Origin: Amoebophrya sp. A120
Taxonomy: Eukaryota > Protista > Dinoflagellata
Reading direction: 5' to 3'
Assembly (NCBI GenBank): GCA_905178155.1
Contig: CAJINV010000009.1
Location: 2,829,373 to 2,893,372 of the forward strand
DNA length: 64,000 bases
Positions 23,065 to 63,948 of the stretch are shown piece by piece. Under the pieces are notes generated by a model. The model saw nothing but the letters and a program-made list of their open reading frames with translations, did no database searches and was not told the DNA's origin. Each line of letters starts with the position of its first letter. The stretch's first letter is position 1. A program made the translations under genes and the position numbers.

Positions 23065-23124
23065 TCAAGAAAAAGCGCACTGGCCGGGCCTCCGCACTTC
23101 CGAAGGCCCCGTCGCGCCAGGCAA

Positions 23125-32539: not shown

Positions 32540-32955
32540 TATAGGAGAAAGTCATACGCTCGTGCGGCTGCTCCTGGCCTTCGGCTTCCGCCTCTTCTTT
32601 GCCGCTGCCGTTGCGTGCCTGCTTCTCCTATAAAATGTAAAAATGTCTGGGTCTGGAAGAATGCAAGTTTGTCATGCTTGTCTGGCATGACTCTTAAATC
32701 TGTCATGCACATTACCAAAGAGCCCCACTTTTCTGTCATGCAGAAACGTAGTTTGTCATGCAGAATAGGCAACACCTAGAAGCTCAGAAACTTGTCATGC
32801 TGAGCCAGCAATTGTCGCCTCCTCATGATATACGCCACACAGCATCACAAGTTTCCAGACCCAGACATTTTTACATTTAATATCTCCAGGTAAGCTTGGC
32901 CCCGCTCCGCTTTGCCCGATCGACTGGACTTGCTCCTCCGCCTATTCTTGTCAGG
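32540..32955 (-). CDS. Two exons of a hypothetical protein
   Basis: After removing 32629-32882 plus DR: PDKNRRRSKSSRSGKAERGQAYLE|KQARNGSGKEEAEAEGQEQPHERMTFSY. Confidence 0.6.
32629..32882. mobile_element. Introner-like element, family A (254 bp)
   Basis: TATAAAATGTAAAAATGTCTGGGTCTGGAA...TTCCAGACCCAGACATTTTTACATTTAATA; perfect DR TCTCC; frame restored. Confidence 0.92.
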
Positions 32956-33292
32956 AAAAATTCCCCCACCTCAACGCATTCAAGGATGATTTCTCATGCG
33001 TCGTTTGCATTCACAAAAGCTGTCCACTTGTGTTGATGCTACAAGACAAAGAGCCACACTCCCGGCCTAGTGTGCAAGCAAATCGTCATGGTATTTTTCC
33101 GCAGACTGCAGTTGTTGCCGTCACTTTCTCGCCTCATGCTGAGCACCAGCATCCAACGCTTGTATTTCATGCCGGACAGACAAATTTTAAGGCAAATCTA
33201 TCACGCTACACAAAAATGAATTTCGTTTCGACATATGTGGGAATAAAGGGGCTTTTTTCACTTTGATATCGGCCACGGGACCGCGAAGATGG

Positions 33293-33950
33293 TATCAACC
33301 GCGAATATGTCTGGGTCCTACTGGAAGATTGGGGGAGTTCTTGTTTGTGTTTATTGTCATGCTGATTTTACAATGATCGACGAAGCTGCCCCTAATAGCA
33401 CGTAGAGCCCTGCGTTCCTCCACCAAGTAAAACATCAACGGCGAGGCGCCCGGGGCCCCTGCAGGTGAGAAACGAGGGTGGCGCCTGGAGTCGATCAAAT
33501 CATATCAACCGATCAACCGGGAAATGAGGGAAGGGTAAGGAATACAGATGTCCCGGGGCCGGGATAACACGAATGAATATCCCGCAATTATAGCTCCGCC
33601 AAGCACTGCCCACGATTAATCTATAAATGTCGAACATCCCGCATAAACGAACTACCTCTGTTCAACAGCCACTGCGTTCATGCAGATTTTACATAACCTG
33701 CGACGTCAGTGATGCATGCTCTAGCATTTTTACAGGTATCGCGAAGCCGAAAGGCTGCGCAAAGAAGCTCCTCACGCCTATCCTTATCCTGCATGAGAAA
33801 AAATCAAAATGCCAATCCTGGTATCAAAAATATGAGTGCCTTCTTGTGCTGCTCATGCAGTACAGGTTTGTTTCTTTCTGCACGTCGATCGAAAATCAGC
33901 ATCACAAATTTCATCCTTTGTTCCAGATCCAGACATATTTGCATCTGATA
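33293..33950. mobile_element. Family A TIR element, expanded (658 bp)
   Basis: TATCAACCGCGAATATGTCTGGGTC...CCAGATCCAGACATATTTGCATCTGATA; DR GATGG/GACGA (2 mismatches). Confidence 0.6.
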
Positions 33951-33988
33951 GACGACCGCTCACCACGCGTGCTCTGGTCCCGGTCCCG

Positions 33989-34367
33989 TATGGAAGCGTC
34001 AGGTTTGAAATGTGCAAAGCTGAAGAAAGACTCCTACAGCTATTTCTTGATTTGGACTTTTAGATGCATAGAGTCGCAGAGCCGAAGGAACGCCTGGGTA
34101 GTTGCAGCAGGAATCAATGACATGAACCGAAACAGATTGTAAGCCTGCTGAAGATGCTCACGGTCAGGGATAGAGCTGCGACGGAGCACGAGAAAAACGG
34201 TCTTCTGGGTAGTTCCATAGCAGCATGACAAAAGGGGCTTGGGCGCTCTCAGATGAACTTGTCATGCGCCGCCTGGAAAATGTGGGCCCAAGAACTGGTG
34301 TCGATTTTGATTCCATGCGTCATGATAATACTCCAACTTTGCCGATTTCGAACCTGGCACTCCCATA
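33989..34367. mobile_element. Family C TIR element
   Basis: TATGGAAGCGTCAGGTTTGAAAT...ATTTCGAACCTGGCACTCCCATA; DR poorly preserved. Confidence 0.65.
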
Positions 34368-34444
34368 CTGCGTCGTGATTTTTTACTTTTGTGCCGGGAG
34401 GCCGAGTTCGCACTGGAGCCTCCACGAGCTGCAGAGTCGTCTAA

Positions 34445-35819
34445 TATCCACTGCAAACATGGATGTCTGGGTCTGGAAGGTTGCAAGATCTTTATTATAT
34501 ATGAAGGTCGCGCCCGCAGGGCGATATTAGTAACCAAATGCGTGCGTGGACTACATCTAATCAGCTCGAAGGCCCGCCAGCCATTTTCTAACATCCACCG
34601 TCGCACGGCAGCGGGCACAAACGAGAGAGAGAGCGCCACCTATTGGAGTCCCACCAATTCTTCTTCCGCCGCGGGCCGCAGATTGCGGTCGCGGCAATAG
34701 AGGGCCACGAGCACAACTGCGGCCAAGGGCCGCGGGGACGTGGTGCAGCCCGCGGCGGCCCCCAGGCTCCTGCGATATATACGCACCGAATGCGAAATGA
34801 ATCCGGCCAACTCGCAGCGGGGCATCCTTCCTAGGCCCCTTGAAGCAAAGCAGTCCTCTTCTGTGGAGGCCACTATACCGTTGCGCGCCACGCTATGCAC
34901 GAGGGCAGGCAGGCCCGCAAAAAGACCCAAACTCCAAAAATTTCCACAATTTTCGTTACTTCCGACAGCCCTTTTGGGCAACCCAACTAGACCATTCGCA
35001 CTCGGGGGGGGGGTGTTCGCCTTGGAACCTCCGAGAGGTCGAAGACCGTGCGTGTGTGACACACCTCCGCAGGAAATGCAGACCATTTTTTTTCTTTCAC
35101 TCCCGATGGCGTGGGGCCTTTAAAAACAGCACGTCGGCGGCCCTTTTCAGCCGGGTTCTGCATACCGCAAAAAGAGTGCGCCTTTCGGCGGTCGATTTTT
35201 CGGCCGACGGATGGCACAATTTCGGCTGCCAATCGCGGCACGGCATCGGGCGCAGCCCAAGCCTCAGGCTTCTTTCTTCGAAAACAGATCATCGGGCGGA
35301 GCCGAAAAAATCCGCTTTTTGCCCTTTTTCTCGACCTGGCTACGCGCCAGATTCTTCTGCTTTTTCAAAAAATAGACCGGCTTTTCCGAAATCCACTTTC
35401 CGACGGACAAACCGCATGCAAGAAAGTGCCCGGCTTTGCGAGTGATTGCACACTCTCGAGCCCCTCCCGTATGGCAGCGGCCACGCCTTCGCGCTGCGTT
35501 TGCGATGGATGACCATCCCGGAAGGATCGCTTTGCGAGCGCGCGGGGGCTGCTTTGGTTACCAGATCATACAGGTTTCGTATGGGCGGCCAAAGGGTCTA
35601 CAAACATTGTGAGCAGCAGCATCAAAAGTTTTCCTCGTCAAGCTGATCTGCAATTATGCCTCTTCTGGAGAAGAATCGCCATCTTTAGGTGCCTAAAAGT
35701 GCATGACTTTTTTTTTGCTCACGGACATAAAATAGATATCTTTATCTTCCTGTCACGCCGACCTAGCGCGACAGTGTCTAACTCTCCCAGACCGCTCAAG
35801 TCGATATTTGCAATGCATA
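34445..35819. mobile_element. Family A ends enclosing a ~1-kb GC-rich insert
   Basis: TATCCACTGCAAA..GTCTGGGTCTGGAA at 34445; CCCAGACC..TATTTGCAATGCATA at 35819; DR not matched, so the pairing is tentative. Confidence 0.45.
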
Positions 35820-36385
35820 TCGCCTTCGTCGGCCCCACGATTTTCGAGCTCGCCCGACGTCTCGTCCTCGCCGGTGCGGGTGGGGGTGCTGGTTTCCTCG
35901 GTCTTTTGCAGGTGGGACGATGCAATTCCTGCGTCATTGTTTCCGCTGGCCACGCGCGGCGCTGGCGCTCCAGCTTCGCCACCATTGTCAACATGAAAAG
36001 TCTCCCCCTTCTTGCCACAGCGGTCAAAACGAAATTTGTGACGCCGCATCTTCCGTGTACTACACAAATGCAAATCATCTCTGTCTTGCAGTAATGGGCA
36101 ATCGCGTGCAGCTGCAGGTGGATGTTTTTGCGTAATAAAGCCGTTTGTTTCGCATGGCCACCAGGATCAGAAATGAGCAGCCGCACAATGAAAGTGACGG
36201 ACACCTTATCTGGCGTAGTTGCCGCTTTGCTTTTCAACAGAAGCATCTTTGGCCACAAAGTAACTACCGAATTCTGTTTTGAGTATGAGGAGGCGAGGGC
36301 ACTTTTCTGCACGGTAGCCTTCGTCCCTTCCCTCCAAGTCGTCAGACGCAGCAGCCCCCCGTCCTGGTCCTCGTCCCGAAGTGGA

Positions 36386-36690
36386 TATCAAATGCAAACA
36401 CGTCTGGGCTGGGCAGAATGCAGACATTTTTTGCCATGCACTTGTTGGACCTGCAAGAAGGTCTGGATCTGGAATACACGCAGAGCATGACAAGATGCGC
36501 GGAGGCTTCTCCAAATGGATGCCAGCCTATAATCCACGCACACGCTTGAGAAATCGTGCCTTCTTCTGGAGATCAAAAGCAAAAGCGACAGCGCGCGCTC
36601 GTTTCTTTTTCTCACTAACAGATTTTTGTCTACGCCAGAGCATCACAAGTTGCATTCGTGTTCCAGACACCGACATATTTGCAGTGCATA
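36386..36690. mobile_element. Introner-like element, family A (305 bp)
   Basis: TATCAAATGCAAACACGTCTGG...CCAGACACCGACATATTTGCAGTGCATA; perfect DR GTGGA. Confidence 0.85.
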
Positions 36691-39654
36691 GTGGAACTAC
36701 GCCCCCCGGTTTGCTTCATCAATCTTGTCCTTCAGAAAAATACACGAGTACGAGCACGACCCATGGCCATGCCGGGAAAAAAGAATAAAAATTTGCGTTG
36801 CTCCAATCGCGTCACAGAAATAATCTCCGAGATGCGGACGACACGACCGCAAGAAATGAGATGGTAACTTTCTGCCATGCAGAGGGCAGTTTGGAACGCG
36901 TCTGATCGGCTATAGAGCAGTTGCCCGACATGTTAATCAATTAGGACGTCTCCATAAACTACAACTTCTGCACAATTATCGTAGTTATCGTAGTAATAAA
37001 AATAATTGCAATATCATTACTGCATGACAAATCTCCGAAATCTGGCGTCTTTGGCATAAAAAATTCCACGACTTGCCACACTGAGCAAATTTGAACTGCT
37101 AGTACTAGTAAGATACTTTTCCAATGTCTAATCTTCCATTACACAAATCGCAAACGCTCTGGCCGCAAGAACGGTCTCACTCTGACCGGCCTTAGTAACG
37201 AACGGCCGCCGCAGATATCAAGAAAAATTTAGCGGCATAAACTTCCTGTGTCTGGTGCTATGTACACGTGTACTTTTGTATAGGATAATTTTCTCGGCCT
37301 GCTGGGGCAGCTCCTGCGGAACATGATGTTGCTGATCTACACTATGAAGTTTCCAAGAGGTTGCGTTACATTGATAGCTGTTACATGAATCATGCAAGAA
37401 CTGCAAAAGTAAAAAGAAGAAGGGGCCTCGCATAAAATTTTGAAACGGATTACACCCGTCCTAGGAACAAGTACAACTACAAGCGGAAGCGCGCCGATAT
37501 AATTAAATTGTCATGCGAAGTGGCGTAACCGTGTTCCGCTGCCATGGGAAGCGGAAGCGAAGGCTGAAGCTGATATAAAGTAATTCTATGTTTTCCATGA
37601 CAAATCAGTAGAGAGCAGCAATCTGTGTCTTGCAACCTTGGAGAACTCCATATCCACCCAGCGCGTTTTGGATCTCAGCCGTCGTGCTCGTGCTCCGAAG
37701 GGTCGTCGACGCTGCAGCAGTTGCGTCTTGTTGCCCTGAAATCAAATTTTTTGTCCTCTTGCAGCTGATGAACAAGTAGGAGCTAAAGTATTTACTTATC
37801 AATCTTCATGCAGTGTAAGTAATAAGTTAAAGTAATATCATGACTATCAAACCCGCTGTTTTATCACTGGCGCGGAAGCTATGCAGATGCGGTCCAAAGT
37901 TTATGTCTGGGGGGAAGACTTGTGCGGATTCTGGAGGTGCTGGAGGACCAGACACTATTAAAAATGTAAAGTCTATAGTGTTTCGGATCTATGCGCAGCC
38001 AGCAAAAAAAGATCGATTTTTGTCTCCAGGATACAAGGGCGTTTTTTATACAGACAAGGCATGCAAAATTCCGGAACAAGCCCTAACCAGACTACGCTGG
38101 GCGCATGAACGGTTCATGCCATACAAATGAGAGGGAGGGGGACTTGTGCACCCTCATAAGTATAAGTTGCAAGGTGTGTACTATTATATAAAGTTGGTAC
38201 CCGCATTTTCGCGCAATCCCTCGACGTTCTCGTCGCCCGCGTACTATGCATTTCAAACATCGATCTCCGGGTCTCTCTGGAACAGCCGAAGGCTTCTCGT
38301 GCTCGGCTGATACCAGGTATAGAAAAATCTGTCATGCGTGCTGCGATCATGTACACATACAGGATCAAGACGAGGGCTGAATTATATGTTGACACTCTAA
38401 AGGCAAGACATCGCCACCCCTGACGAAGAAAATGCAAAATACACACGACCCCTCTCATACTATGTGAGCGCCAGGGTCGAAATTAACAAACTTCAAATAA
38501 TTCGCAGTACATAAAAGCTCAACATGGCGCAAGCCTCTTTAGTACTGTAATGGCTACCAAGGCGAGCCAGAAACTGCTCACGAACTGCTTAAGTTTCCTG
38601 AAGGTAACTGTATTCAAATTGAAATTGATGTCAGCTGCAGAGCAGCGCAGCGGCGCATGACATCGGTGCGTGACAAATTTTGGCAGGATATCAAAGACCC
38701 AATTTGCAATGCTGCTAGGGGCAAGGCAGGCTGTTTTTGTGTTGCTCCCCCGCAGCTTCACTATTACCCCGAAGCCCGAATTCCTATGCGCAGCGGTGCC
38801 AAGGTATTTCTATTGCAATTTTGTTGATTTTGAGCCTGGCGTCCCTAAGTCGCGTGGTCTAGAGAAGACGTAGTCCGCCCCTCGCGAAAACATGTTCCGA
38901 TGCGTGAAGACTTCGGAGGCGGCTGGCTTGCTTACCAGGATCTTCTCGTCCACGACGGCACGCAGGAGCTACTAGTAATAGCGTCGTAGTACCTTTACTA
39001 GACTATTATACGCTGGCGCCAAGGACGCCGGCGGCGGGGCGTCTACTAATACTAATAAATAACTAAATTTCTATACGAAGAACCCCAACAAGGGCTCTAG
39101 GAAAAAGCCGACGGCGCTCCCCAGAAGGTCGATCAACCTTCAGGGGAATCTTCAGGAGAGTGGAAAAGCCTTGAGAAAGGTACAAAAAAGCCTGGCCCTG
39201 TTTCAACATGGTTGGCTTTCTTGGTGACCTTCATCAGGCTTCGGCCCCCTGCAGGTGCTTTGCGAGCCTCCTGGAAGCCTTTCTTTAGGGCACCAACGCA
39301 GGCTGCTTTTTTCCTTTTGTGGTGGGTCTTTTGCTGTGGCTCTCTTGCGGCGGGCTTTTTGGCTTCTTCGCAGCTGGCCACCCGGAAAGAAGCCGCAGGC
39401 CGTCGCTGCAGGGACGCGCGTCACGCTTGCAGCAGCTTCCTAGCTTCTTGAAAAAATTCTCTGAAGAAGCGTCCCACGGCCCTTCTCTTAGACTGGCCTC
39501 TCAAGGGAAACGCTTAGCCGGAAACCGTTTACTTCGTACTTCCCTCTACGTCTAAAGGGCCAAAATTTGGAGCAAAAATTAAAATATTTCATTTTTACAG
39601 ACAGATTATTTTATTCATCCAGATGGACCGAGAGCTTCGACATTTGCACTTGAT

Positions 39655-40885
39655 ACGTTTGTCGTGCGCACCATGGTCAGCGACACCATTCCCGCTGCGC
39701 AGCACGATGCAGAGCTGGTGCATGGGTTCTTCTTGTGCGCTGGGGGGCGCTCCTCCGGACGGGGGTGACGAGCGGCACGATCTCGTCCACGAGGTTGTTG
39801 AGAAAAATCCTGTGGAGCCTGTAAAGCTCGCCGCAAGCGCACGTCGGGGCTGCCAGCGTGGTGATGGTCGTTGTACATCAGGCCATGCATGGGGCCAACA
39901 GAAAAATTGGAACTGGATGCTGTTGGAGTGATGACGAAGCCAGTCAAACGCGTCGTCCCCGAAGCAAAACTGCTGGGCGCCGGAGAGTATAGATTGCAGA
40001 TTACATCCCTGGATGTTTGGAACAGTGCTGCAAGATGAACTTGTGATGCTGCATTGGGATTCGAAAAAAAAATATCCCATCTGTGTTCTTTATGCTGCAT
40101 GAGCAGCAAATAAATAAAGAGTACAACTTTCACTACGCGGTGGACAGGGGATTTGTCATGCGCGGGATAGCATAGGCATCAAGAAACCTTCAGAAAATTA
40201 TCTTTCTGTGATGCTAAGTAGGACCACAGACATCGCAGATCGATCTTTCCAGCAGCTGCAGCTCATGCAAAACGTGCGTGACAAATACAAACTTGCACTT
40301 TTCCACACATCCAGGAATATATGCAGTGGATAGAGAGATTCCTTCTCGAGGAAGATTCGGGATCATGGCTTATCCTGTGTAAAAACGTCCACACCCCATG
40401 GCTGTCGTGCAAATCTGCAGGGTGAAAATCAAAATTTCTCTCATGCGGAGCCCCATGCGACGCATTTTCTCGTACTGTTTGAAATTTGGGACGCTACAAT
40501 CAGCACGAAATGCAAAATTTGCGATGCTGCTGCACTAGCTAATCGCGACACATTGCGACCCCAATGTAGTTGTCATGCGCAAGAGAAACAGTCAAAGCTT
40601 GCTAATTTGTCTTGCAGATTTCCCAACTTGACTGTCTATGGTAGGGTTTGTGTACTGGAAAAGACCAACATAAAGCAAAAACAAATTTGGGGTGTTTTAT
40701 CTTCATGTACTGGAGAAGACCAAAATAAAGCACAGACAAATTTGCGGTGGGGCCGTTTTCACATATGATATGGCTTCCGTTGCAGTTCCCGCCCCGTCCA
40801 CCAGGAGCAATGAGGAGTCGAAGGTTGGCACCCCGCCCACGGCCACGGCGTCGGCTTGCTCTGTCATACGAAAAAAGTGCTTCAC
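39655..40885 (-). CDS. Three exons of a low-complexity hypothetical protein
   Basis: In frame after removing 40371-40770 and 39988-40332: ...VDGAGTATEA|MIPNLPREGIS|PAPSSFASGTTRLTGFVITP... Confidence 0.7.
39988..40332. mobile_element. Introner-like element, family A-related (345 bp)
   Basis: TATAGATTGCA..CCTGGATG...CATCCAGG..TGCAGTGGATA; perfect DR GAGAG; interior resembles 26712-26978. Confidence 0.8.
40371..40770. mobile_element. Introner-like element, family H (400 bp)
   Basis: TATCCTGTGTAAAAACGTCCACACC...GGTGGGGCCGTTTTCACATATGATA; perfect DR TGGCT; frame restored. Confidence 0.85.
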
Positions 40886-41970
40886 GATTGTAAGGTTGTG
40901 ATGCGAACGGTATAAAGAAGAAAGTCATGCTGCGACACAAAATCAAAAGAAGCGTTTGTCTTGCTACACATGCAGCAAGATCGTGGTTTCTTTTTTGGTC
41001 TTGTCAGTTTCCCTTCGGGTGCACGAATGGCAGATCTTCTTTGACTTTGTCATGCTAGGCAAATAACTTGTGATGCAAACCACCTTGCAGAATCCTTACA
41101 GTGAAACAGGGTTTTCGTACGATATGCTCTTTCCAGCAGAAATTTCTCTCGGCCTGCTGCTCGAGCTGGACGCTTGCCCGTGGGTGCCGGCGGCGCACGC
41201 TTGTTGAGTCCCTCGTCGCGCCACGGCTGCTGGTGGCGGTCACGCAGCTATCGAGGTGGTTGTCCTGGTTGCTGTGCTGGATCTCTTCGCGATCGCGTTC
41301 ATGGTCTGACGCCACTGCGTCGCGGCTATCCTGTGGGAAAAGCGATACTCATAGCACGACCCCGGTTGTATGCTCAAGATGGAACAAAGTCCGGCTGCAC
41401 TTCTAGACAATAAATGACGCTCCAGGAGGTGTTCTTTATGTGGGAGATCTCATGACAAATTATTTGGATGCGCCTCATGGGCGTGCTCAGCTAGTGTCAG
41501 AAACTGCTGCAACAAAAATCGACAACTTCATCACAACTTCCCCGACATTTACTCTGCATGAGCAATGCCCAAAAACAACTAGGCAATGCCCGTGACGAGA
41601 GATGGAGAGGCGCGTGAGGAGGAGGACGCACACACACATAAGAAATCTCAAGAAAAAATGCAAGACCTGTGAATAACCAAAAACTGGGGTTGTGCCTTTG
41701 TCTTTACTGTTACTCAGGATAGTGGCCGTCCCTGTCCCTTTGCCGGCTGTCACGCATTTTCGTGTGCTTCTCGTTCTCCGAACGCGAGCCGCGTCTACCT
41801 TACTTGATGAAAAATGAAAATTCGTGAAATAAATAAGTACTATGTTCTGGGTGGAAAAACTGTAAAAAAATGAAGAATTTCTCCAGCTTTCTTCCGACCG
41901 CGCAAATTTCTGCACACACACACGACCGCGGGATACGCAGTGCTCGTTGGCTCCTCACCACCAAAATGTA

Positions 41971-45300: not shown

Positions 45301-45768
45301 AATGCCAAATATATCTTCATGTGACAGCTGACAGTCTAGCGCTTCACAATCTTCCCATAGATATGCTGTAGTATACGCTTTTGCTCATCGTGATCTCACA
45401 CGCATTTACTTGCTCTCCGTGCAACATGAGCTGGCGCAAATAAGTAAAAGAGACCAAGTCTGTCATAGTGTCCGCTCCTTGTCTTTAAAAGATATTCGCG
45501 ATGCAAACAAAACGCAGTGCTGTGTGTATGTTATGCGAGATTGATACGCATCATGGACGATGATAAAATGCACCCCTTGTCCCCGTGTTCTTGGGCTGGT
45601 GGTGCTGGTGGTCGTGTGCTGATCGAATTAAATTATGTACTGTTCAGCGAAAAAAATATATATAAGGGAGTCAAAATCTAAATCTAAATACGTAACTCTC
45701 ATCATATTCTCGCGCAAATCTTCGAATGTTCTTCCTGCTTGGACGGTTTTCTTTTGGAAGAGAATTTA

Positions 45769-46047
45769 TATCCTGAGTAAAAACGTACCCACACCAGAGT
45801 CAGGATGAGGATTTTGCAACACAAACCTAGGAGCTTTGTGAGTCACGCATGACAAGTTGCGCTACGCAGTGTAGTGCAGGTTAGCAAGTGCAGCCACATC
45901 ACAGATTCGTCTGCTCATCCTGTTCACAGCATCACAAATTCCAAAACACGATTGGAAATGGCTCTCATGGGGATGCGCATTACAAGTCTTCGCGTCTTTG
46001 CAAATCTGCATTACAACTCTGGTGTGGGTACGTTTTTACTCAGGATA
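45769..46047. mobile_element. Family H element with perfect ~32-bp TIR (279 bp)
   Basis: TATCCTGAGTAAAAACGTACCCACACCAGAGT...ACTCTGGTGTGGGTACGTTTTTACTCAGGATA; no matching DR. Confidence 0.85.
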
Positions 46048-46068
46048 ACGCATTTTCTCGGGGAAATG

Positions 46069-46310
46069 TATGGCGTTCTCAAACGTTATACTCTCAACTG
46101 TTACATGAATTTGTGACGCAAGAGCCGCAACAGTCAAAGGCACAAGCTTGCTGCTTTTGCATCACAGATTTGGCACGGAAGATTTAGATGCTGTCTAGCC
46201 CTTCGGAGATTTGTCATGCGAAGCAGCTTGATCATCTACCGACGCAAGGCAGTTTAGCATGACAAATTCGCGCAACAGTTGTTCAGAGTGTAACGCTTGA
46301 GAACACCATA
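46069..46310. mobile_element. Introner-like element, family B (242 bp)
   Basis: TATGGCGTTCTCAAACGTTA...TAACGCTTGAGAACACCATA; DR AAATG/AACTG. Confidence 0.85.
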
Positions 46311-46389
46311 AACTGGTGGACCAAGACCAACGGGCAGTGGGACTTCTTGCCCTACGTCCAATGGAACACAGAAGACATGCAGTGGCTTT

Positions 46390-46621
46390 TATGCAAGAAA
46401 AAAACTGTGTATAGTGTAAGTCTGAGATGCAAAAAATGCAAAACAGAGTTATACTTACACTTGTCATGCTGGACCTGCGTCAGAGGCTCGTCATCTTTTC
46501 GTACGTGTTTTCCCGTACTAGCCGCGCACATGACAGGCTCTCTCTGATGTCATGCAGAGCAAACTCGTGATGCTATTTTTCTTCCAAGAAAATTACACTA
46601 ACACAGTTTTTTCCTTGGATA
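46390..46621. mobile_element. Introner-like element, family D (232 bp), inverted relative to the 56946 and 63349 copies
   Basis: TATGCAAGAAAAAAACTGTGT...ACACAGTTTTTTCCTTGGATA; perfect DR GCTTT; flanking minus-strand ORFs join in frame (DSPEKA|TACLLC). Confidence 0.9.
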
Positions 46622-46811
46622 GCTTTTTCTGGTGAATCCCGTCGAAGATTGCGACGTCCGGTGGAAGCAACAGCGGTGTTGCACAGTAAAAAAAGAAATC
46701 CCAGCTGGGTCCAGCGGCGGTAAAGAAGTAGTACCGAAATACTCTCTATGCATTGCAAATATGTCTGGGTGGTCTGGAAGGATGCAACTTGTGATGCTGC
46801 ATCTGGATGCT

Positions 46812-47930
46812 ATCTTCGAATGTTCTTCCTGCTTGGACGGTTTTATTTTGGAAGAGAATTTATATTTGGGGCTCGCGCCGCAGTGCAGACACAGCGGCGC
46901 GGGGATCTGCACATAACAATAGAACAATAGCACTGGAAGCAGCAACTAGATCTCCTGGAAGCGGCTAAATAAAGAAGCTTGGCCGAAGGGGAGGCGCCTT
47001 TTTGGCGAGGGGCTTTGGCGGGAAGGGCAGCCGACGCACGAAAAAAACTGCAGTTTCCCTGCCAAGCGGCAAAAGGCGAAGCAGCAAAGTGTGTAAGTAC
47101 TTCAGCTATCCCATGCTCGCAAAAGCACGAACAAAAGACAAAGAGAAGAAAAAACCAAAAGAAAACTGGCAGGCGCAAACCGCCAGCAGCAGCCCAAAAC
47201 TTAGAACGCTTGGCCCGGCCGGCGCCTGTAGCGCCAGAACGAGAAGCAGGGCCCAGCAATCGAGGCAGAAAATAAGCGCGCGCCCTCCAGGTTGTTCCCG
47301 TTGCATTCGGTGACAGGCGCGCCCCCTATCGGCTGGCGACTAGAAATCCGCCGCAGGTGCGGCCGCCCTCTCTGTTTTCACATCACTGCAGCCACCCCCG
47401 CGCTGCTAGGGCCAGGGTTGCTGCTCTTCGGGGTACATGCGTTTCGGCTACCTTTAGCTGCGATTTGTGGAGGTAGGGGTCGCCGGTGGTCGCTTGGTAC
47501 ATACAAACACAGCTGCAACCCTGTGAACCGCTGCGCACCTGCTGGCGCTAATTGTAAATCGCGCGCGCCACTGTAGTAGCAGTGCTTCGCCACGCCTGTT
47601 GCTTCCCAGTAGCAGGCACCCCTGCAGCAGCGCGCCTATTTGTTCCAGATCCTTTACTTTTTTTTTACTACTTTCTTTAGATGCGAAGCTGATGAATATG
47701 AAAGTAGGCAACCGCCCCACCTGCCCTCACCGCCTGAACGCGACAGGCATTCCGGTGGTTGTTTCTGTGCCTCTCCCAACTCGCGCGAGATTGGTCGCTT
47801 TTTTGCTTCCGTTTTCGAGAGGGTAGACCGGTCACGCGTGCAAGAACAACTACAAATGTTCTTCCCGCTTGGACGGTTTTATTTTGGAAGAGAATTCATT
47901 TGCGATCTTCTTCTTCAACAGGGTGGATCA
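46812..47930 (+). pseudogene. Decayed Cys-rich CXXC-repeat (furin-like/variant-surface-protein-like) gene fragment
   Basis: + strand remnants ECSSCLDGFILEEN, KCVSTSAIPC, PGCSRCI, SCNPVNRCAPAGANCKS, CEADEYE, KCSSRLDGFILEEN, with stops and frameshifts. Confidence 0.45.
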
Positions 47931-53352: not shown

Positions 53353-54579
53353 GCGGCGGATTCGCGTTTCTCTTTTGTATATCCGATTTCTACGAATTAG
53401 TACGGTACTACTATTGCAATGTATACGATTTATGCGCTTCGCAAATTCCTTCCATTTTGTCTATTTCCAACCTGGCGCTTCCTTATGCCATTAGCGTTTT
53501 CGTATATGCATTGCAAATCCGTCTGGGTCTAGGGATTTGTGTTGCTGAATGCCGCATCGCATAGTATCCGCCTGTAAGGCATAAGAGCATCGCAAGTTTT
53601 GCGACGCAGATCGCATATTGATATTCATTCGCAACACGCATGGCAAACTGATCTCCAGCATGCACGTGCACGACAAAAAAAAATGGCCGATCATATATAT
53701 GAATCTTGTCATCCTTCTCCATGTCCATTTCCTTCATCGGATCTCGCGTTACAAATCCAGCACCAGACAAATTTGCAGTGCATAGATATGGTACACGTAC
53801 AACTTGGAGAAGAGTTTGCCATTACAACAACTTCTACAGTTTCCTAATCGTGTTTGTTCAGGTGCAGCGCATAGACACGAGGTGCACGTGCAGGCTTCTA
53901 TGCAAAAAAGTGTGAATCATAGAATATTAAGTAACCTGTGACGTCGTCGCACGAATGCCGAAAGTTATCACTTCCTGTTCCTGCTACAAATAAAAGTGCC
54001 GCACTCCTCATCATGGGGCGCGGGCATCAGGAAGCCTGCGCAATCTCTGGAATGCTTTTGCGTGCATTGCCTATTTCTTTCGGAGAGCATGAGCATATAA
54101 TAATAAATATGACATATTTATATGCTCATGCTCTCGACTACATCAAAAGTCTGAGAAAGGCACGTGCTTCGTAAAACAAAACACGTGAGAAAATCTTTCT
54201 AGTATGTAGCACACTTTAGTAGCTTCGCATCAGGTTTACACTGCGACAGATTCTATTTCCGATAGAAGAAAAAAACGCGAAGCCTGTAGCTGTACCTGCC
54301 CGTCGTCATTATCATAATTGTTCAGAGTGCGTTCCACTCGTTCACCGCGTATGCAAAGAAAAACGTGTTGCAGTTACAGTTGTACAACGGGTTCTTTCTT
54401 CTTGCAACACCAGGAGCACAAACAACCTTTGTCATGCGAGACCTGCTGAGCGGCCTAGTACCAGTAGTACCTTTATTTTGAGAAGGTCTCCGCACTGCAA
54501 CTTTTCTTCATTTTGCGGGGCAAGGCTGTGTTGCTGTTGTTGTGCGTGTGACAGCAAATGTGTAGTGAACTGTAGCCCT

Positions 54580-54833
54580 TATGGACTTCTCAAACGTTAC
54601 ATAGTCAGCGGCTACATGGATTTGCGATGCACGAATAGCAAAAGTGAAAGGAAAGACGAAGCGATTGCGTGTCTTGCATTACAGGAGGCAAGTAATCCGG
54701 CACGGATTCTGCTGCAGCTACTGAGCGCGCCGAGAACTTGTCATGCGGGCAAGCAGCTTGCGTGTGATGCTGATGGTAATTCTGCATGAAAATTCACGCA
54801 ACAGCTGACCATGCAACGTTCGAGAATCCCATA
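54580..54833. mobile_element. Family B TIR element (254 bp)
   Basis: TATGGACTTCTCAAACGTTAC...GCAACGTTCGAGAATCCCATA; DR degraded. Confidence 0.7.
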
Positions 54834-56766: not shown

Positions 56767-57510
56767 TCTGCTAACCTGCTTCGGTGCTCCTCCACAAACT
56801 TGTTGAGCGCGGGGTGATTTGGAGGTGGCCCCTTGGGTTGCGGTGTTCCTCCACCTTCACCAGCCGCAGTCGCTGCCCCGGCAGAGCTGCAAGCAAGTCC
56901 CGCTACCGCAGAAGAGGAGATCCTCACTAGCCGCCGCCACGATGGTATCCAGGAAAAAAAGTGTGTAAGTGTAACTTTCTTTGAGAAACAGCATCACAAA
57001 TTTGCTCTACATGACAGAGAAGACATGTCATGCGTGGCTTGTAGGGGAAAACACAGTTGAAAAGAGGACTTCGTGGCTGTCTGGCATGACAGGAGTAACT
57101 CTGTTGCATGTTCTGCAACACAAATTTACATTTACACAGTTTTTTTCTTGCATAGATGGAATAGGAATTGTTGTCGTACGCCGCATGTTCTGTATGGAAG
57201 CGTCAGGATCGAAATCGTCAGAGTTGAAATAATTTGTCATGCATAAAATGCAGACCACAAAATGCCTGTCTTGCAGAGTAGGCAAGTGAGGCAGATTGTA
57301 AGCCTGTTGACGGGTAGAAAGTGAGCCGCTACAGTAGCATTACAAAAGGCGTCTTCCTTACCAAACACCATGACAAACTGGATTTAGGTTCTACCAAAAT
57401 TTGTCACGCGCCACTTAGAAACTGGGTTACACCTGGCATCCAATTTAGGCATGGCAAATTATTTCACCTTTGTCGATTTCAAACCTGACACATCCATATT
57501 CTGCATCTTG
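56767..57510 (-). CDS. Three exons of a hypothetical protein (possible N-terminus)
   Basis: After removing 57193-57498 and 56946-57154: KMQN|MRRTTTIPIPS|WRRLVRISSSAVAGLACSS...NKFVEEHRSRLAD. Confidence 0.6.
56946..57154. mobile_element. Introner-like element, family D (209 bp)
   Basis: TATCCAGGAAAAAAAGTGTGT...ACACAGTTTTTTTCTTGCATA; perfect DR GATGG; colinear with 63349-63562. Confidence 0.9.
57193..57498. mobile_element. Introner-like element, family C (306 bp)
   Basis: TATGGAAGCGTCAGGATCGAAATCG...CGATTTCAAACCTGACACATCCATA; perfect DR TTCTG. Confidence 0.9.
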
Positions 57511-58382
57511 AAGGTAGAAGTGGGAGTCCTCGGTTTCTTATGGATACAAGAGGTAAAAATGAGGCAGGTCGGTCCCCCCTCGGTAGTTTTTGCTTTGAAT
57601 TTGAAACAAGGAACGGTCTCCGATAGATTAAAGTTGTTTAAAGTTACGATTCAATGAGACGAAGAAGAACAAGAAGACAAGAACGAAGTGTGGTATGAAA
57701 AAAGTAGAATTAGAATGTGTACGTAAAAAAGTTGGGTTAGGTAAATTGAAAAATGAAAACAAAACGCATCAGTTGGGAGGAACTGCAGACAAGGCGGTTT
57801 GGGATGGTCGTAGGTTTTTCTTTTTGCTGAGTCATTCCTATTCAAACCGGTACTACACGATCTGAAAGATCACGAGGAACTAGTACGATGGAAGATGCGC
57901 CGTATACAAAATGCTTTATTCCGGTCCACGAGAGGACAACGGCAGCCGTAGAGTTGTAGTACTAGAGAGTACTACAGCACTCTACATCTACTGCGTTGAG
58001 ACTGACATATGCTTTTGTCACGCACGAAAAATTCATCTACCTGAGGAAACGAGGACCGAACGAAGAGGGAAACCGGCTGCACAGAAACGATTTTTGTTTT
58101 TTTTTTTTGAACGACCGATAGTTGTACAACATCCACAGGCCTTTTTACTTTGAGCTCGCACGAGGTGGAAATCACTTCTTCTTGCACGACTTCTACACAG
58201 TCACAGACGCACAGCTTCACAAGTTGAAGCACGATGACCGAGAAATTTTTTTTTCGTCGTCGTGTACGTGGGTGATGTGTACGAAAACATGTTCGTGATG
58301 TACACACAGGAGGCTTACGCTAGGGTACGAAGATGCAAATCTGAAACCGAGCTCATATTATACGAAGATGCAAATAACCGAG

Positions 58383-58688
58383 TACGCGTTGCAAATTAGA
58401 TGTGGTCTGGGTCTGGAAGACTTCCCATGCTTGTAGTGATGTGGGGGCATGATGATTGTGATTCTACTTAACTCTATGACGAATCATGCTCCTTGGGCGC
58501 AAAAAAATCCTCTTGCCTGTCCTACAAAAATGGAGCCTCACATGCGGAACAATACGCAACTACACGCGGACGCTCAAATAAACCTTGTCATGCTTGACCA
58601 ACTACTGGCTCTACAGTGAGCTCAGCTTAAATATTCACAGACCTGCATCTTGACAAGTTTCCAGACCCAGACGCACTTGCATTTGATA
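58383..58688. mobile_element. Introner-like element, family A (306 bp)
   Basis: TACGCGTTGCAAA..GTCTGGGTCTGGAA...TTCCAGACCCAGACGCACTTGCATTTGATA; DR CCGAG/CCGAC. Confidence 0.8.
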
Positions 58689-58746
58689 CCGACGAGAGTT
58701 CAGCTACGAGTACGACCGGGACCGACGAAAAAATAGGAAAAAAATC

Positions 58747-58983
58747 TATGCAAGAAATAAAACTGTGTACACGTCCATTTATATAGAGTGAGTCTGTGAC
58801 GCAAAGCATGCAGCACACTTGTCATGCCATGTTGAGACCGTATGATCATTTAAGTTTAACTGCATATTTATGTGCTTTGTTTTCACGCATTGGCTGTGCG
58901 GTATGACAGGCTTTCTCTGTTAGGCAAGAGAAATTTGTCGTGCTGTCAGTCACGACCCCAGGACACCGTTTTTTTCTGGGATA
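58747..58983. mobile_element. Family D TIR element (diverged)
   Basis: TATGCAAGAAATAAAACTGTGT...ACACCGTTTTTTTCTGGGATA; DR not matched. Confidence 0.65.
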
Positions 58984-59472
58984 CACATATACAACAAGCT
59001 TACTTACTTCATCTTCCTCTACAAAAATGCATAGCGAGGGACATACTTTCCGTTCCAGCATACACAGTTCCAACCGCTGGCCTGAAAAAGAACCGCTAAG
59101 GGACGATGATAAAAGCTAAAGCACAGTAGGCTTATTAATTTACGCGCACAGCTGCCAAGCAATTCCATAAAGTTGCACCGCCCCCCGGACAATTTTCCGC
59201 AGGACCGTACGTAGTTGTCGCTGCATTTCGTCTCAGTTCGTGTTTCCGCCCCCAAAGCGGAGTCACGAGATGAGTCAGCTCGCTCCTCCGGGGGTGTGCC
59301 TTCCGCTCGTCCTCGGAGCTGTTCCACACTTCACAGAATCGACCGCAACCGATCCCGAGGGCTGGCTTCGATCCTTCCTGGGGGGACCTGGACGCAGCTC
59401 ATCCAACTGGTATCGATTTTATGCATTGCAAATCATTTCAACTTTGTCGACTTCGATCCTGACGCGTCCATA

Positions 59473-62400
59473 GTACTGCTGGTATCTTGTTGATCCACAT
59501 TGATTTATAGGTTGTGATACCTTCGAATTCGCACGTCTTGAGTTGCATGTCCGGCACGTCTTGAGATGAATTTGTACTGTCCTTGCATGGAGGCCGACAA
59601 AAGCGCAGCTCCTCTTGAGGTCATGCAACAACGGCATTTGATGCATCTGTCTTGCGCGCCATGTCGCATATTTCTTAAGAGCAGCAGCGAAGCCTTCTAG
59701 AAGCTTGTTGTCAAGATCCTTCGCTGCGCTCGCAATCAAAAATGTTCCAGTTCCTCACATCAATCGATCCTGGCATCACAAAACTCCGGACCCAAATCGA
59801 AATTTTTTGCATTTGATACTTATCTACGCATTTATCTTGCCGATGTAGCAACACAGATTTTTTGTCTGCAGCATGGAAACCTGCCAGCTCCAGCATACGA
59901 AGATTGATCTGTCATAAGTGATGTTGAACACAAGCACGGAGGACCAAATACGCAGTACTTACCGGGCAGCGTCTGAGCAAAAGTTCGCGCATAACTGCAA
60001 ACATCTGAGCTCCTTGCCGCTGTCAAGCTTGTTGTAGTGCAGTGGGTTGTGTATCTTCAAGGAAAACTACAGGAAAAAACATTTTCTGTAGTAGTACGAT
60101 CTGACAGCAACATCACAAACTGAGCACTAGCACATCATACAGTTTGAATTTTCCAGGAGCGATGTCGCTCAAATAAACAAGTTAGACATGACGAAGACGA
60201 CCATGACCACGGCAGACACCAGTTAAAAATGTCATGCTTCTTCTAGAATGAGAATTGTGAAATACACCAACACAAATGATATTGAAAATAGCAGGCCGAC
60301 TGGGCTGCGCTGCTATGTTATGTTATAACCTGCGCAGGTGTTAGAATCTCAATTTACACAGTTTTGTCTTGCATGAAGAGCATGAAAAACATGCGCACAG
60401 CCTTGCACTTTTCGCAATACAAACAAACGTTTGAGATTGTAACACCTGAGCGGGCCATATATGTCTACTGTGCATCATCTCCGTGATCTTCTTCTTCTGC
60501 CTCCACCTCTATGGAAGTGTCAGAATCGAAATCGATAAAGTACTAGCGGAGAAAAAGATTTGCAATGCATAAAATGCAACCATAAAATGCAATGCACAAA
60601 GTAAAAGTGCCTCTCTTGCGGGGATGGCAAATAGTCCGGCTGATTGTCCGCTAGTTTGGCTTTGGGATCCTCTGATATAATAGAGCTGCTAAAGTACTAG
60701 CAGGGCCATTCTGTGCCCAAACCAACAGCGCGACAGATTGGATTCCGATGCAGCTGCCAAAATCTATCATGCGCCATTTGAAAACTGGAATCCAACAACC
60801 GGCATCCACTTATTTTTGCATTGCAAGTTTTCCTATCTTTGTCGATTTCGATCCTGACGAGTCCATAACGGCCGTGTCTGCCGCGCTACTATGGGACTCT
60901 CAAGAAGCGTTAGTACTTTGTTTGCTGTTACATGAAATTGTGCTGCAAGAAGAGCGAAAGTGAAATAGAATTAGAAATGCAAATATATTCATAAATCCTC
61001 TCGCATTTTACAAATCCGGCACAGAAAATTTCCATGCTATTTGGACCTTCGAGAATCTGTCATGCGAAGTAGTCTGAAGATCGTGCGGAGGCTTCTAGTA
61101 CGAGATCATGGTAAAAATTCTGGAGGGTGAGAGATGATTGATAAAAGCAAACTATGTAGCCGCGTTTGAGGGTTGTCCCAACATACGGCTCCGTGCCTGG
61201 TTCATCTGGGGCTGGTTTCGGCTTGTTTTTTTCACCGTCATTTTTCGACGAATTTGAAACTCCTTTAGCAGCTTGGTCCTTGTCCCCTGCTGGGCTAGCT
61301 GCGTTTGCCGCTAGTCCTCTGCATAATGCATTGCAAATATGTCTGGGTCTGGAAAGTTGTGACCACGCATATCAGTGAATAGAAAGCACACTGTATCTGT
61401 AACGCACCGCAATAAAGCATCACAGAATTTCAATTTTCAGTCGCTTCGTGTCGCGTATTCCGCATGGGACTAAAACAGCGTCTTTGCATGGTAAACAACC
61501 CGAGCTCCTGCTGGCTACGCGATACAGAGCTCGGTGCCATTCACGACCAGCATGCCAACTCTCGCATGCTTCCAGACCCAGACATATTTTCAATCCATAT
61601 GCTCCACTCTTCGTTGATTTTGTGTTCCAAATATTTGCCCAACTATGAAAGTGCACGACTCCCCCTCCCCCTCAGTTGTCAAGCAAAAGCCCAAATCCAG
61701 TCGCTGCCTTGCGGCACCGTTTGCATGACAAATTTCGGGGGCCCAAACGGTAAACAGTAGCAGTACCACAGTTGGTGCATAAAAAATTTCATTTGTCACG
61801 CACGGGCTCCAAGGTCGTCAGTGGCGTTTGTGTTGCTCCTGTTCATGCCATGCAACAAAAGAGGGCAGGGGGGGGTTGTGCACTCTGATACCAACACTGC
61901 GAGAGCGAGAAAAAGACCGGGGTGCAGGAAGAATAGCACTCGGCCTCCCGCCTGAGGCAGGAGAGAACCAAGGGAGGGAAACAGGTTGACCAGCACGTCC
62001 TTCATTTGAAACGCCGGCTCGTATTCCAGCTCGAAGGTAAGGAAAAAGCGGACGGCAAAGCATTGCAAAGAAAAGGGCCCCCTTCCCAAATTGATGAATC
62101 AACACGCATCTTCCTTCCGAAATTCTGCGAGGCGGATTTGTGGCCATAAATCTGCATTGCAAGAAGACAAATCCAGAGAGCAGTCCGCCGGCGTGTCAAT
62201 ATACAACTGCAGACGAAGATTTGTAACGCTGTGAGGCCAACAGGCACAGGGCAGACCTCTGCCATAGCCGTGCTAAGTGCCTCCACAAAAAGATCCCTGC
62301 CTAAGGCTTAGGTGGATCTGTGCGCAGGAGTCCTGCTCTCATCTCTACTGCAAGACAAACTCGATTTTCTCTTCCGCACGTATATGATCCCGCATCATAG

Positions 62401-63948
62401 ATTTTGATTTCCATTCTGATATAATGGGGAGGGGGAACCTTTATTCTATATTGGGATAAAAAGACGGCAATCCCCACGTTGCCCAACAGGTAGGGTCGGC
62501 TTTCGAAAATTTCTTGTTGCAGCATGGTTGATAGCGTATGCTTTGCAAAAGTATGGCATCGTACTCGTATACCTAAACCTATACATTTACATGCATTACA
62601 AATTTCATGAGAATTAAAATCTGTAATGCGGATTTACCTTGAGAAGTACATTTGTAATGCATGATTGCAATTAGAATTACTACCCTACGTACGAGTACGA
62701 TACTTTTGCATTGCATATAGGGCGGTCTCGGCCAACAAGTCAAAACCGGCCACCAGCGGGTATCAAATGCAAAAATGTCTGGGTCTGGAAACTTGTGATG
62801 CAAGAAAGGGAGTAGTGAACTCACTCTAATGCGCTGCCAAGCATGACAAGTTTTTTCCGTGGTTCTGAGTTGCGTACCCCGCATGAGAAACTGAGTTTTT
62901 GCATGACAGGGAGGAGGAGCTCCTCGCGGCCATGCAACACAGAGTTCAGAGTCACGCCAGACAAGCATGACAAATCTCGCAATCTCCCAGACCCAGACAT
63001 TTTTACATTTGATAGCGGGTCTGCGGTCACAACCTGGAAGAGGGAAGAGACGGTGCAGCAAATCAAAACCTGGTTGTAGTAGCCGTAGTATTTCTTCACT
63101 TGCTCGAAGCGGGTCAACGGCTTCTGGCCCGGCTTCTTGCTCTTCTTCTTCGTCTTCTTCGCGCCGTCACTTCGCCTCTTACGTGGGGACGATGAGGTCG
63201 AGGAGGACCTCGATCTTCCTGTATTTTTCGCGGCTTTTGTCGTTGATCCCGGCGGAGGTGATAAGTCCCCGCCGGCGTGGAGGTTTTCAGGTGGATCACC
63301 ACTACCACCATCCCCGGGTCCACCTCCGCGATCAGCGCTGGAAAACAGTATCCAAGAAAAAAACTGTGTTAGTGTAACTTTCTTTGGCTGACAGCATCAC
63401 AAATTTGCTCTACATGACACAGAAAACCTGTCATGCGGGGTTTGTAAGGGAAAACACGCATGAAATGAGGACTGCATGGCTGTCTGGCATGACAGGCGTA
63501 ACATAACTCTGTTGCATGTTCTGCATCACAGATTTACACCTACACAGTTTTTTTCTAGCATAAACAGCATACTGCCTCCATTGCTGTACTTTAACCGCAC
63601 CCAAGGTAGGGCCAACGCAAGACCGCCCGCCACGGTTTTAATAGTACCCTTCGCAGACGTCGCACCGGAGGACCCGCTGAGCTTCACGTGCAAGTCGGTG
63701 GCGCGGATTTTTATCTTTCTGGGCCGCCCGCCCGGTACTGCAGCCTCGATCGCACATCGCGCTCCTTCGGGAGTTGTTTGAGTTTTGGATCGCACCTCAG
63801 GCGGGGCGATGAGATCTCTAGTGGGACGCCGGGCCGACCACGACCACGACCACCTCGTCTCTCTCTCGCGTGGTAGTACGTCGTCGAAAAATAGCAGGCG
63901 CCTCTCCTGCTTTGACGGCAGCGCTACTGCAGTACTTCTGTAGTCCAC
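59473..63948 (-). CDS. Multi-exon hypothetical protein; 62450-63948 rebuilt in frame, lower exons only partly assigned
   Basis: ...YSNGGSMLF|SSADRGGGPGDGG...KPLTRFEQVKKYYGYYNQVLICCTVSSLFQVVTADP|LVAGFDLLAETAL|STMLQQEIFESRPYLLGNVG across three elements; further exon-like ORF pieces at ~61155-61320 and ~59473-59740. Confidence 0.7.
60510..60867. mobile_element. Family C TIR element (358 bp)
   Basis: TATGGAAGTGTCAGAATCGAAATCGATAAAG...CTTTGTCGATTTCGATCCTGACGAGTCCATA; DR ACCTC/ACGGC. Confidence 0.75.
61324..61599. mobile_element. Family A TIR element
   Basis: ATGCATTGCAAATATGTCTGGGTCTGGAA...TTCCAGACCCAGACATATTTTCAATCCATA; exact left end unclear. Confidence 0.75.
62537..62717. mobile_element. Introner-like element, family E (181 bp)
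   Basis: TATGCTTTGCAAAAGTAT..ATCGTACTCGTA...TACGAGTACGATACTTTTGCATTGCATA; DR TAGCG/TAGGG; frame restored. Confidence 0.8.
62761..63014. mobile_element. Introner-like element, family A (254 bp), inverted relative to 32629-32882
   Basis: TATCAAATGCAAAAATGTCTGGGTCTGG...CCAGACCCAGACATTTTTACATTTGATA; perfect DR GCGGG; frame restored. Confidence 0.92.
63349..63562. mobile_element. Introner-like element, family D (214 bp)
   Basis: TATCCAAGAAAAAAACTGTGT...ACACAGTTTTTTTCTAGCATA; perfect DR AACAG; frame restored. Confidence 0.92.

Follow-up and report, generated by a model that had tools for sequence, protein, structure and literature searches.

The window analyzed here, a 64,000-nucleotide stretch of DNA from the algal parasite Amoebophrya sp. 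A120, carries transposon-like elements whose families interrupt reading frames of the same strand in both orientations, because their ends are inverted repeats. We give an even chance to the reading that these are miniature TIR transposon copies, spliced in both orientations by a relaxed spliceosome that takes their mirror-image ends as one-way signals. Gene models and reading frames make it likely that the window elements are spliced from RNA whichever way they lie, and removal is polar in the direction of the transcript, not symmetric. Neither these elements nor introners that work both ways are new as such.

Elements in both orientations within minus-strand genes

The coordinates, lengths and inversions reported by the first-pass annotation for two copies of family A (A1 and A2, 254 bp each) and three of family D (D1, D2 and D3; 232, 209 and 214 bp) are correct (Table 1). 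Each pair was aligned both ways. A1 and A2 are mutual reverse complements, with local alignment scores of 51 forward and 183 in reverse complement; after trimming 35 nt per end, their interiors score 25 and 132, against a null maximum of 36 among 1830 pairs. Likewise, D1 is inverted with respect to D2 (45 forward versus 167 in reverse complement) and to D3 (48 versus 192; trimmed interiors, 25 versus 128), whereas D2 and D3 share their orientation (280 versus 48). Perfect 5-nt direct repeats flank all five copies.

The placement of A1 and A2 in minus-strand frames was borne out. The P0001 protein matches the minus strand exon by exon and is joined across A1, and that of P0002 is joined in the same way across A2 and D3. 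TA-starting elements bound all 17 junctions of P0001; its initial ~170 residues may be in the wrong frame. According to the cited part of the genome paper, A120 gene models derive from transcript alignments, since ab initio tools failed on such introns (PMC7789003). When an element is removed together with 5 nt, the frame is restored whichever way the element lies; at A1 the predicted intron would span 32625-32883.

Three family A copies in A1 orientation and four in A2 orientation lie in minus-strand coding sequence of the window, and 6/7 are skipped by the gene models. With a leave-one-out profile these seven score 34-82 bits on a single strand, the opposite one scoring 0, and oppositely oriented copies coexist in one gene (P0001). 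The elements at 58383-58688 and 58747-58983 were excluded from the coding counts as apparently lying within a larger intron, a by-eye reading. In family E, copies at 6468-6823, 37343-37652 and 60890-61185 are opposite to the one in Table 1 and likewise lie in minus-strand ORFs. A Pfam search of 19 window ORFs returned nothing meaningful, with one weak match below the cut-off.

Table 1. Gene models and elements of the window, with strand and context.
Feature	Position	Strand	Context
Gene model P0001 (CAD7960360.1, GSA120T00004521001)	16723..35937	-	1885 aa; 17 junctions
Gene model P0002	60468..63999	-	466 aa; start outside window; 8 junctions in window
A1, family A introner	32629..32882	+	Perfect 5-nt TSD; within minus-strand gene model P0001
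A2, family A introner	62761..63014	-	Inverted versus A1; within minus-strand gene model P0002
Family A copy	26712..26978	+	A1 orientation; skipped in P0001
Family A copy	28002..28305	-	A2 orientation; shares P0001 gene with A1
Family A copy	33293..33950	-	A2 orientation; shares P0001 gene with A1
Family A copy	39988..40332	+	A1 orientation; minus-strand frame open across 5 elements
Family A copy	61325..61599	-	A2 orientation; skipped in P0002
D1, family D	46390..46621	-	Inverted versus D2/D3; host exons likely plus
D2, family D introner	56946..57154	+	On removal, a single frame of the six is open in the flanks, minus
D3, family D introner	63349..63562	+	Skipped in P0002 (minus strand)
Family D copy	9227..9456	+	D3 orientation; flanked by long minus-strand exons
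Distant family D copy	40862..41124	-	Inverted; 21 bits; within minus-strand frame
Family E copy	1354..1598	-	In minus-strand ORF

D1 is a different case. Open frames alone were dropped as the criterion of strand, given how often the in-register antisense frame is open as well, and codon scores and homology were used instead; the codon-score call had the right sign in 35/37 held-out chunks. By this measure the plus strand is best for the D1 flanks, 8.9 bits above the in-register minus frame (14.8 versus 3.3 by the pipeline). The D1 exons are thus likely read on the plus strand, which makes D1 doubtful as a same-strand example: its inversion stands, its earlier description as an intron of a minus-strand frame is not confirmed, and the shared host strand claimed for inverted copies is retained for A1 and A2. 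For the longer D1 exon, two readings were searched and gave no protein match, and none of the gene models found includes D1. The segment that contains D1 (45769-46814) is bounded by two copies of a ~50-nt direct repeat.

One polar geometry fits all annotated junctions

A donor cut 1 nt before the TA fits 25/25 annotated junctions and is the sole fit in 3; offsets of 0, 2 and 4 fit 19/25, 20/25 and 10/25. The mirror cut is needed by none of the 25 and excluded in 15. Hence, of the earlier claim that one element works as an intron both ways through symmetric recognition, the interruption of same-strand frames in both orientations holds, whereas symmetric recognition is not supported, the junctions being polar. 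Fixed bases are T at +2, A at +3 and A at -7 (25/25 each), canonical borders are rare (GT starts, 6/25; AG ends, 5/25), and neither G(+1) nor AG is required. The intron form is N-TA … A-N6, in which the A usually coincides with the initial A of the terminal ATA, and the end profile is N-TAT … ATA-N4, with offsets of 1 and 4. These resolvable offsets are confined to two minus-strand genes, in no family are junctions informative for each orientation, and five element ends were picked with the gene model already in view; A1 and the copy at 26712 have perfect TSDs.

The A at -7 is kept in all 8 junctions that have no ATA at -7 to -5, and the transcript 3′ end of the copy at 26712..26978 is ACA in place of ATA. 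Where ATA is followed by G (10 junctions), the AG is used in 2/2 cases with an A seven bases upstream and in 0/8 without (p=0.022). Across 48 elements of the window, neither the T nor the A of the 5′ end ever changes (0/96 positions), as against 11/96 changes at their 3′ partners (p=0.0007). The A at -7 in all 25 junctions is no more than suggestive of a branch adenosine, and the match to the YTRAY branch consensus is weak (T at -9 in 10/25). A G bias at -1 (13/25 junctions) was also considered; it was gone in 24 further elements and in 310 elements.

Partial replication in a second assembly

A second assembly yielded 371 elements, of which 261 have a perfect 5-nt TSD and 321 the TAT…ATA ends. 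Host strand was called for 310 elements; this set is automatic, includes mis-paired ends and consists of copies that are not independent. Tabulated against host strand on these second-assembly loci, both orientations occur in coding sequence (family A, 61 versus 88; family D, 9 versus 5), with a mild bias in family A (p=0.03). Pfam matches support the strand calls, being found in 11/150 frames on the called strand and 0/150 on the other or uncalled strand. Hosts of one orientation include RPB1, TCP-1, ABC and RING genes and hosts of the opposite orientation include Tpt1, an SNF2 helicase and a 3-hydroxyacyl-CoA dehydrogenase, while the KIN17 gene (locus L048) holds both. Per-side frame calls require the element plus 5 nt (mod 3) in 23/25 cases, in both orientations (6/6 and 8/8), and supersede a weak six-frame ORF-length control (191 versus 157-174 of 276); strands conflicted in 7/32 frame tests.

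A is absent at -7 in 5/310 elements and at +3 in 6/310, G(+1) (101/310) and AG (28/310) are at background level, and the TSD sequence is apparently unconstrained. Arm asymmetry replicates at position 1 (2 versus 16, p=0.001), is weak at position 3 (13 versus 5, p=0.10) and does not replicate at position 2 (6 versus 8); changes at position 1 are mostly A to G, for which a U-G wobble in the stem is also an explanation. A search for P0001 and P0002 exons in the second-assembly loci fetched found none, and hence no orthologous site lacking an element.

A proposed relaxed spliceosome weighed against other ways of removal

If a relaxed spliceosome is at work, the 5′ arm would supply the donor U(+2) and A(+3), and the 3′ arm a U-tract (-15 to -19) plus the branch adenosine at -7, from which the acceptor would be set by distance. 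The inverted-repeat stem would probably draw the ends together and might substitute for U1 snRNA. In a flipped element the other arm would read identically, and one target copy would always be removed; an element landing at nearly any site, whichever way it points, would therefore leave the mRNA unchanged. In its most specific form, which we hold tentatively and at slightly less than even chances, the A120 splicing machine ignores G(+1) and AG and reads the palindrome, with the TAT arm as donor, the ATA arm as branch point and the acceptor seven bases on, so that any copy, whichever way round and wherever in an exon, would be a perfect intron on landing. For a spliceosome, borders left wholly free at +1, -2 and -1 are extreme, which counts against the relaxed-spliceosome model. 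The cited part of the genome paper leaves open how tens of thousands of non-GT-AG introns are removed without a detectable U1 snRNA (PMC7789003), and the fixed rule (a cut 1 nt before TA and an A seven bases upstream of the acceptor), holding in both element orientations, makes this splicing question directly testable. The rule would also account for the ability of these transposons to reach at least 17 copies in a single gene, with no orientation or target sequence penalized.

The main rival, which we find less likely, is a separate nonspliceosomal machine: the inverted ends would pair, and an enzyme would make staggered cuts at two set distances from the stem, 1 nt and 4 nt, before joining the exons, as proposed for Euglena nonconventional introns. 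A staggered cut is polar too and hence compatible with the offsets. Predicted stems join both ends of A1 and of A2 on the transcript strand, G(+1) and AG remain at background, and U-G prevails over C-A at position 1 (16 versus 1). The portions of the literature cited here add that U1 snRNA was not found in A120 (PMC7789003) and that Euglena introns require palindromic motifs, with unequal offsets from two cuts (PMC12501133). However, there is no transcript-strand wobble bias as expected of an RNA stem (G-U versus A-C, 77 versus 60 in the window and 270 versus 257 in the second assembly), the sense duplex is more stable in just 28/48 window elements (p=0.07), and in several elements pairing is predicted to be low at the three terminal pairs. 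Pairing-breaking transitions at end positions 2 and 3 outnumber wobble-keeping ones (21 versus 6, p=0.006), a pattern more in keeping with sequence signals than with pairing. Two junctions even depart from the stem register, using an AG with an A at -7.

The remaining explanations fare worse. Ciliate internal eliminated sequences (IESs) resemble these elements in their TA-starting inverted ends and orientation independence, and DNA-level excision had been offered earlier; removal from DNA at some life stage nevertheless strikes us as highly improbable. The offsets are polar by host transcript and track the host gene rather than the element, and tolerance of change differs between the two arms, which decay differently by transcript direction. 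One fixed geometry together with this asymmetry argues against DNA excision, as do the presence of the elements in two independent DNA assemblies and the lack, to our knowledge, of a separate somatic nucleus in this parasite. It is also improbable that one orientation alone is spliced efficiently and the other reflects gene-model artefacts or wrong strand calls. The apparent plus-strand host of D1, the often open antisense frames, the possible misframing at the start of P0001 and the mild family A bias all speak for it. However, opposite copies lie within a single reading frame in both P0001 and KIN17, for which strand errors cannot account, and conserved genes host both orientations.

Comparison with known introners and nonconventional introns

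By sequence, the window elements match the known A120 introners. In the part of their description cited here (Farhat et al. 2021, PMC7789003), these have TAT…ATA inverted ends, seven loose bases and then an A run, with 3-5 nt direct repeats at exon borders, a hairpin and non-canonical splice sites; the window elements share the TAT-starting inverted repeat, the 5-nt direct repeats and the repetition as families. That part applies "orientation" to genes only, without mention of element orientation, and describes where splicing falls with respect to the hairpin as variable or unknown. Beyond it, both orientations are counted here and a single geometry fits every annotated junction.

Introners of Polarella glacialis and Aureococcus anophagefferens are, in the cited portion of their description, TIR/TSD transposon-derived, with several classes that are introns in either orientation, biased to one, and that draw on the element or TSD for their near-canonical GT/GC/GA and AG sites (bioRxiv 2020.10.14.339549). 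The A120 elements are alike in being predicted introns in either orientation and unlike in showing no enrichment of G(+1) or AG. Orientation independence alone is thus no argument against the spliceosome, contrary to what the first-pass annotation had supposed. Non-canonical introns of Fritillaria borealis are also MITE-derived with TIR and TSD and reportedly removed by an adapted spliceosome, with AG-AC/AG-AT borders preferred, in the passage cited (PMC11282704); A120 elements share the MITE-like structure, but their borders are free.

A120 elements differ from canonical U2 introns, with their GT/GC donor and AG acceptor, and from ciliate-type IESs in that their offsets depend on the host strand. 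Euglena nonconventional introns, as far as the cited excerpts describe them, are MITE-like and non-GT-AG, with direct repeats, a stem and palindromic motifs at fixed unequal offsets (PMC12501133; review, PMC11282704); the motif, CDG…CH'G, has offsets of 3 and 5-6, the exon starts with a purine, excision yields circles, and knock-in served as the test (PMC12501133). In place of this N3-CDG … CH'G-N5-6 signature, the A120 elements have TAT…ATA at offsets 1 and 4, ends that resemble donor positions +2/+3 and a branch A.

Results

Inverted copies and their ends

A1, A2, D1, D2 and D3, whose coordinates proved to be those of the first-pass annotation (see the table), all start with TAT, end with ATA and carry a perfect 5-nt flanking direct repeat; about 70 elements of this kind occur in the window (68 in our curated list). 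The family A copy A1 matches A2 over its full length once A2 is reverse-complemented (score, 183; forward, 51), and D1 runs opposite to both D2 and D3 (167 and 192 versus 45 and 48), as had been proposed. Trimmed interiors gave the same result (132 versus 25 and 128 versus 25; null maximum, 36 over 1830 pairs), so the terminal repeats are not the source of the inversion signal.

Published A120 introner ends are inverted repeats with a TAT start, seven loose bases and an A run, with 3-5 nt direct repeats and non-canonical splice sites (Farhat et al., PMC7789003); the end profile of the window elements is the same, which identifies them as a known kind. A stretch of exon 25899-26315 returned a single protein match, at 100% identity, to CAD7960360.1 of Amoebophrya sp. 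A120. Unrelated families have in common, in the interiors of most elements, the motifs GCATGACAA and GCATCACAA in both forward and reverse-complement form; these are possibly shared transposase sites. A 5-bp target duplication with T-A/G-T ends is reminiscent of integrase-type transposases, and integrase-like homology has been described for one A120 introner family (PMC12130899). Tandem 90-110-nt repeats occur in swollen elements at 2400-3900 and 5150-6300. A G before TAT turns the element start into GT, and AG is present at some ends (24844-24845, the 41936 region, 37736-38034); counts of canonical introns may thus include some of these same elements.

Coordinates of named and swollen elements and of the gene models
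Feature	Window position	Class	Basis
Family A, A1	32629-32882	A1-like, in minus-strand coding sequence	leave-one-out profiles
Family A	26712	A1-like, in minus-strand coding sequence	leave-one-out profiles
Family A	39988	A1-like, in minus-strand coding sequence	leave-one-out profiles
Family A, A2	62761-63014	A2-like, in minus-strand coding sequence	leave-one-out profiles
Family A	61325	A2-like, in minus-strand coding sequence	leave-one-out profiles
Family A	28002	A2-like, in minus-strand coding sequence	leave-one-out profiles
Family A	33293	A2-like, in minus-strand coding sequence	leave-one-out profiles
Family D, D1	46390-46621
Family D, D2	56946-57154
Family D, D3	63349-63562
Swollen element	2118-3962	1.4-2.2 kb, GC-rich insert
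Swollen element	4881-6364	1.4-2.2 kb, GC-rich insert
Swollen element	17059-19070	1.4-2.2 kb, GC-rich insert
Swollen element	22961-24844	1.4-2.2 kb, GC-rich insert
Swollen element	28886-31093	1.4-2.2 kb, GC-rich insert
Swollen element	34445-35819	1.4-2.2 kb, GC-rich insert
Swollen element	38245-39655	1.4-2.2 kb, GC-rich insert
P0001	16723-35937	minus-strand gene model
P0002	60468-63999	minus-strand gene model

Host strands in the window

Dropping each of 19 elements (26200-37735) with 5 nt yields a minus-strand frame with one break. The antisense frame in register with it is nearly open as well, so open frames alone were not relied on for strand. The minus-strand model P0001 (18 exons) has an exon join spanning A1, and P0002, also on the minus strand, has joins spanning D3 and A2 in a region where each of the other five frames contains at least six stops. 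A120 models derive from transcript alignments (PMC7789003), which makes these joins indirect transcript evidence. The mutually inverted A1 and A2 thus do both interrupt minus-strand genes, as first suggested. Family A totals three A1-like and four A2-like copies (the two orientations relative to the host coding strand) in minus-strand coding sequence, and P0001 alone holds two of each. Families D (3 versus 1, the one at 21 bits), E and F (both 3 versus 1) are likewise two-way, and H weakly so (1 versus 1); family C keeps one orientation (4 versus 0 in minus-strand frames).

Almost every gene in the window lies on the minus strand, and no convincing Pfam domain was found among 19 window ORFs. 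P0001 may be a fusion of more than one gene. Within 31094-35937, its first ~170 residues use a frame scoring -23 bits, versus +11 for another minus frame open from 37735; the model skips a short exon (31473-31535) through one join that spans two distinct elements from outer end to outer end (31143-31967), and skips four swollen elements exactly despite their size.

D1 had been put forward as a second inverted example. Its inversion relative to D2 and D3 stands, but its flanks score best on plus, 8.9 bits above the in-register minus frame (35 of 37 held-out chunks scored with the correct sign), and the automatic caller agrees; neither reading matched any protein. Measured against its own coding strand, D1 therefore likely points the same way as D2 and D3. 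The neighboring element 45769 also faces the opposite way from all related copies lying in minus-strand genes, and a ~50-nt direct repeat, with a third copy near 47857, brackets a 1.05-kb segment, 45769-46814 (window 45720-46864), which suggests a captured, inverted gene fragment. Inside the segment are three complete elements, a truncated one, and short exons that score best when read on plus.

A second assembly

Searching metagenome_contigs with the family A end motif gave at least 167 matching stretches (~660 estimated), all of those among the matches listed coming from JACKZZ01 contigs; 166 loci were merged into 153 pieces (380 kb). Automatic detection, which recovers 30 of the 48 curated window elements, identified 371 elements there, 261 with a perfect 5-nt repeat. 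Strand was called for 310 by a codon-score caller that, in a partly in-sample comparison, was right for 27 of 30 window elements, with 3 uncalled and 0 wrong. Of the 150 longest called-strand frames (from 224), 11 had Pfam matches; the 150 longest of the 225 other frames had none. Tabulated against host strand, family-assigned and called copies included both orientation classes (A1-like versus A2-like, 22 versus 27 in the A1 subfamily and 39 versus 61 in the 26712 subfamily; 9 versus 5 in family D), which persisted under stricter thresholds. In L048, the KIN17 gene contains copies in both directions, two against one; copies in RPB1, TCP-1, ABC and RING genes share one orientation, and those in Tpt1, SNF2 helicase and 3-hydroxyacyl-CoA dehydrogenase genes have the other. 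With frames called per side, element plus 5 modulo 3 was needed in 23 of 25 strand-concordant cases, in both orientations, with strand conflict in 7 of 32 tests. Loci L048, L104, L152 and L131 place family A copies inside the conserved housekeeping genes KIN17, RPB1, TCP-1 and Tpt1 2'-phosphotransferase.

Polar junctions

Cut positions reproducing the protein were enumerated for all 25 in-window junctions of P0001 and P0002. A donor 1 nt before TA is compatible with 25/25 and the sole fit in 3, and the mirror cut is ruled out in 15; junctions are polar in the models, contrary to the symmetric recognition first put forward. With this donor, T(+2), A(+3) and A(-7) each occur in 25/25, the -7 base being independent of 3' end choice once the donor is set (five element ends were chosen with the model in view). 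The same introns are T-rich from -15 to -19, with GT in 6 and AG in 5. At two junctions a G following ATA creates the AG used as acceptor, three bases before the usual position, and an A lies seven bases before that AG; eight other ATA-G junctions are without such an A and use the usual acceptor (P = 0.022; small numbers).

The leading T and A show 0/96 changes in 48 window elements, versus 11/96 for their 3' partners (P = 0.0007), and the -7 A is retained in 47 of the 48. Among the 310 second-assembly elements, this asymmetry of 5' versus 3' changes replicates at the first position (2 versus 16), is absent at the second (6 versus 8) and is weak at the third (13 versus 5); neither G(+1) nor AG exceeds background. 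Stems are predicted in both A1 and A2, with no transcript-strand excess of G-U over A-C pairs in the stems.

Discussion

The two-way occurrence of these elements is real: copies lie in coding sequence in both orientations and, in the gene models, are removed precisely with one target copy. An artefact, which we consider improbable, would leave opposite copies within one frame unexplained. DNA-level excision, raised in the first-pass annotation, fails to account for cut positions that track the gene and appears more improbable still. We see an even chance that a joint model holds in which elements would be removed at the RNA level, the palindromic ends offering, whichever way an element lies, U-A as a donor-like signal and, together with a U-tract, a branch-like A, and the acceptor position being set by distance from that A. 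U1 snRNA was reported as undetected in A120 (PMC7789003).

The elements themselves are known, A120 introners having been surveyed again in PMC12130899 and cited in PMC9860276 (field review, PMC11282704), as are two-way introners in Polarella and Aureococcus (bioRxiv 2020.10.14.339549). Two-way use and the fixed N-TA … A-N6 rule may be new for Amoebophrya; we found no paper stating either in a search that covered open-access articles, preprint text, and text and supplement legends of PMC7789003.

Stem-guided, non-spliceosomal removal is a tentative alternative to the joint model, to be taken seriously at a lower probability. It has a close model in Euglena, whose introns require palindromic motifs at unequal offsets (PMC12501133).
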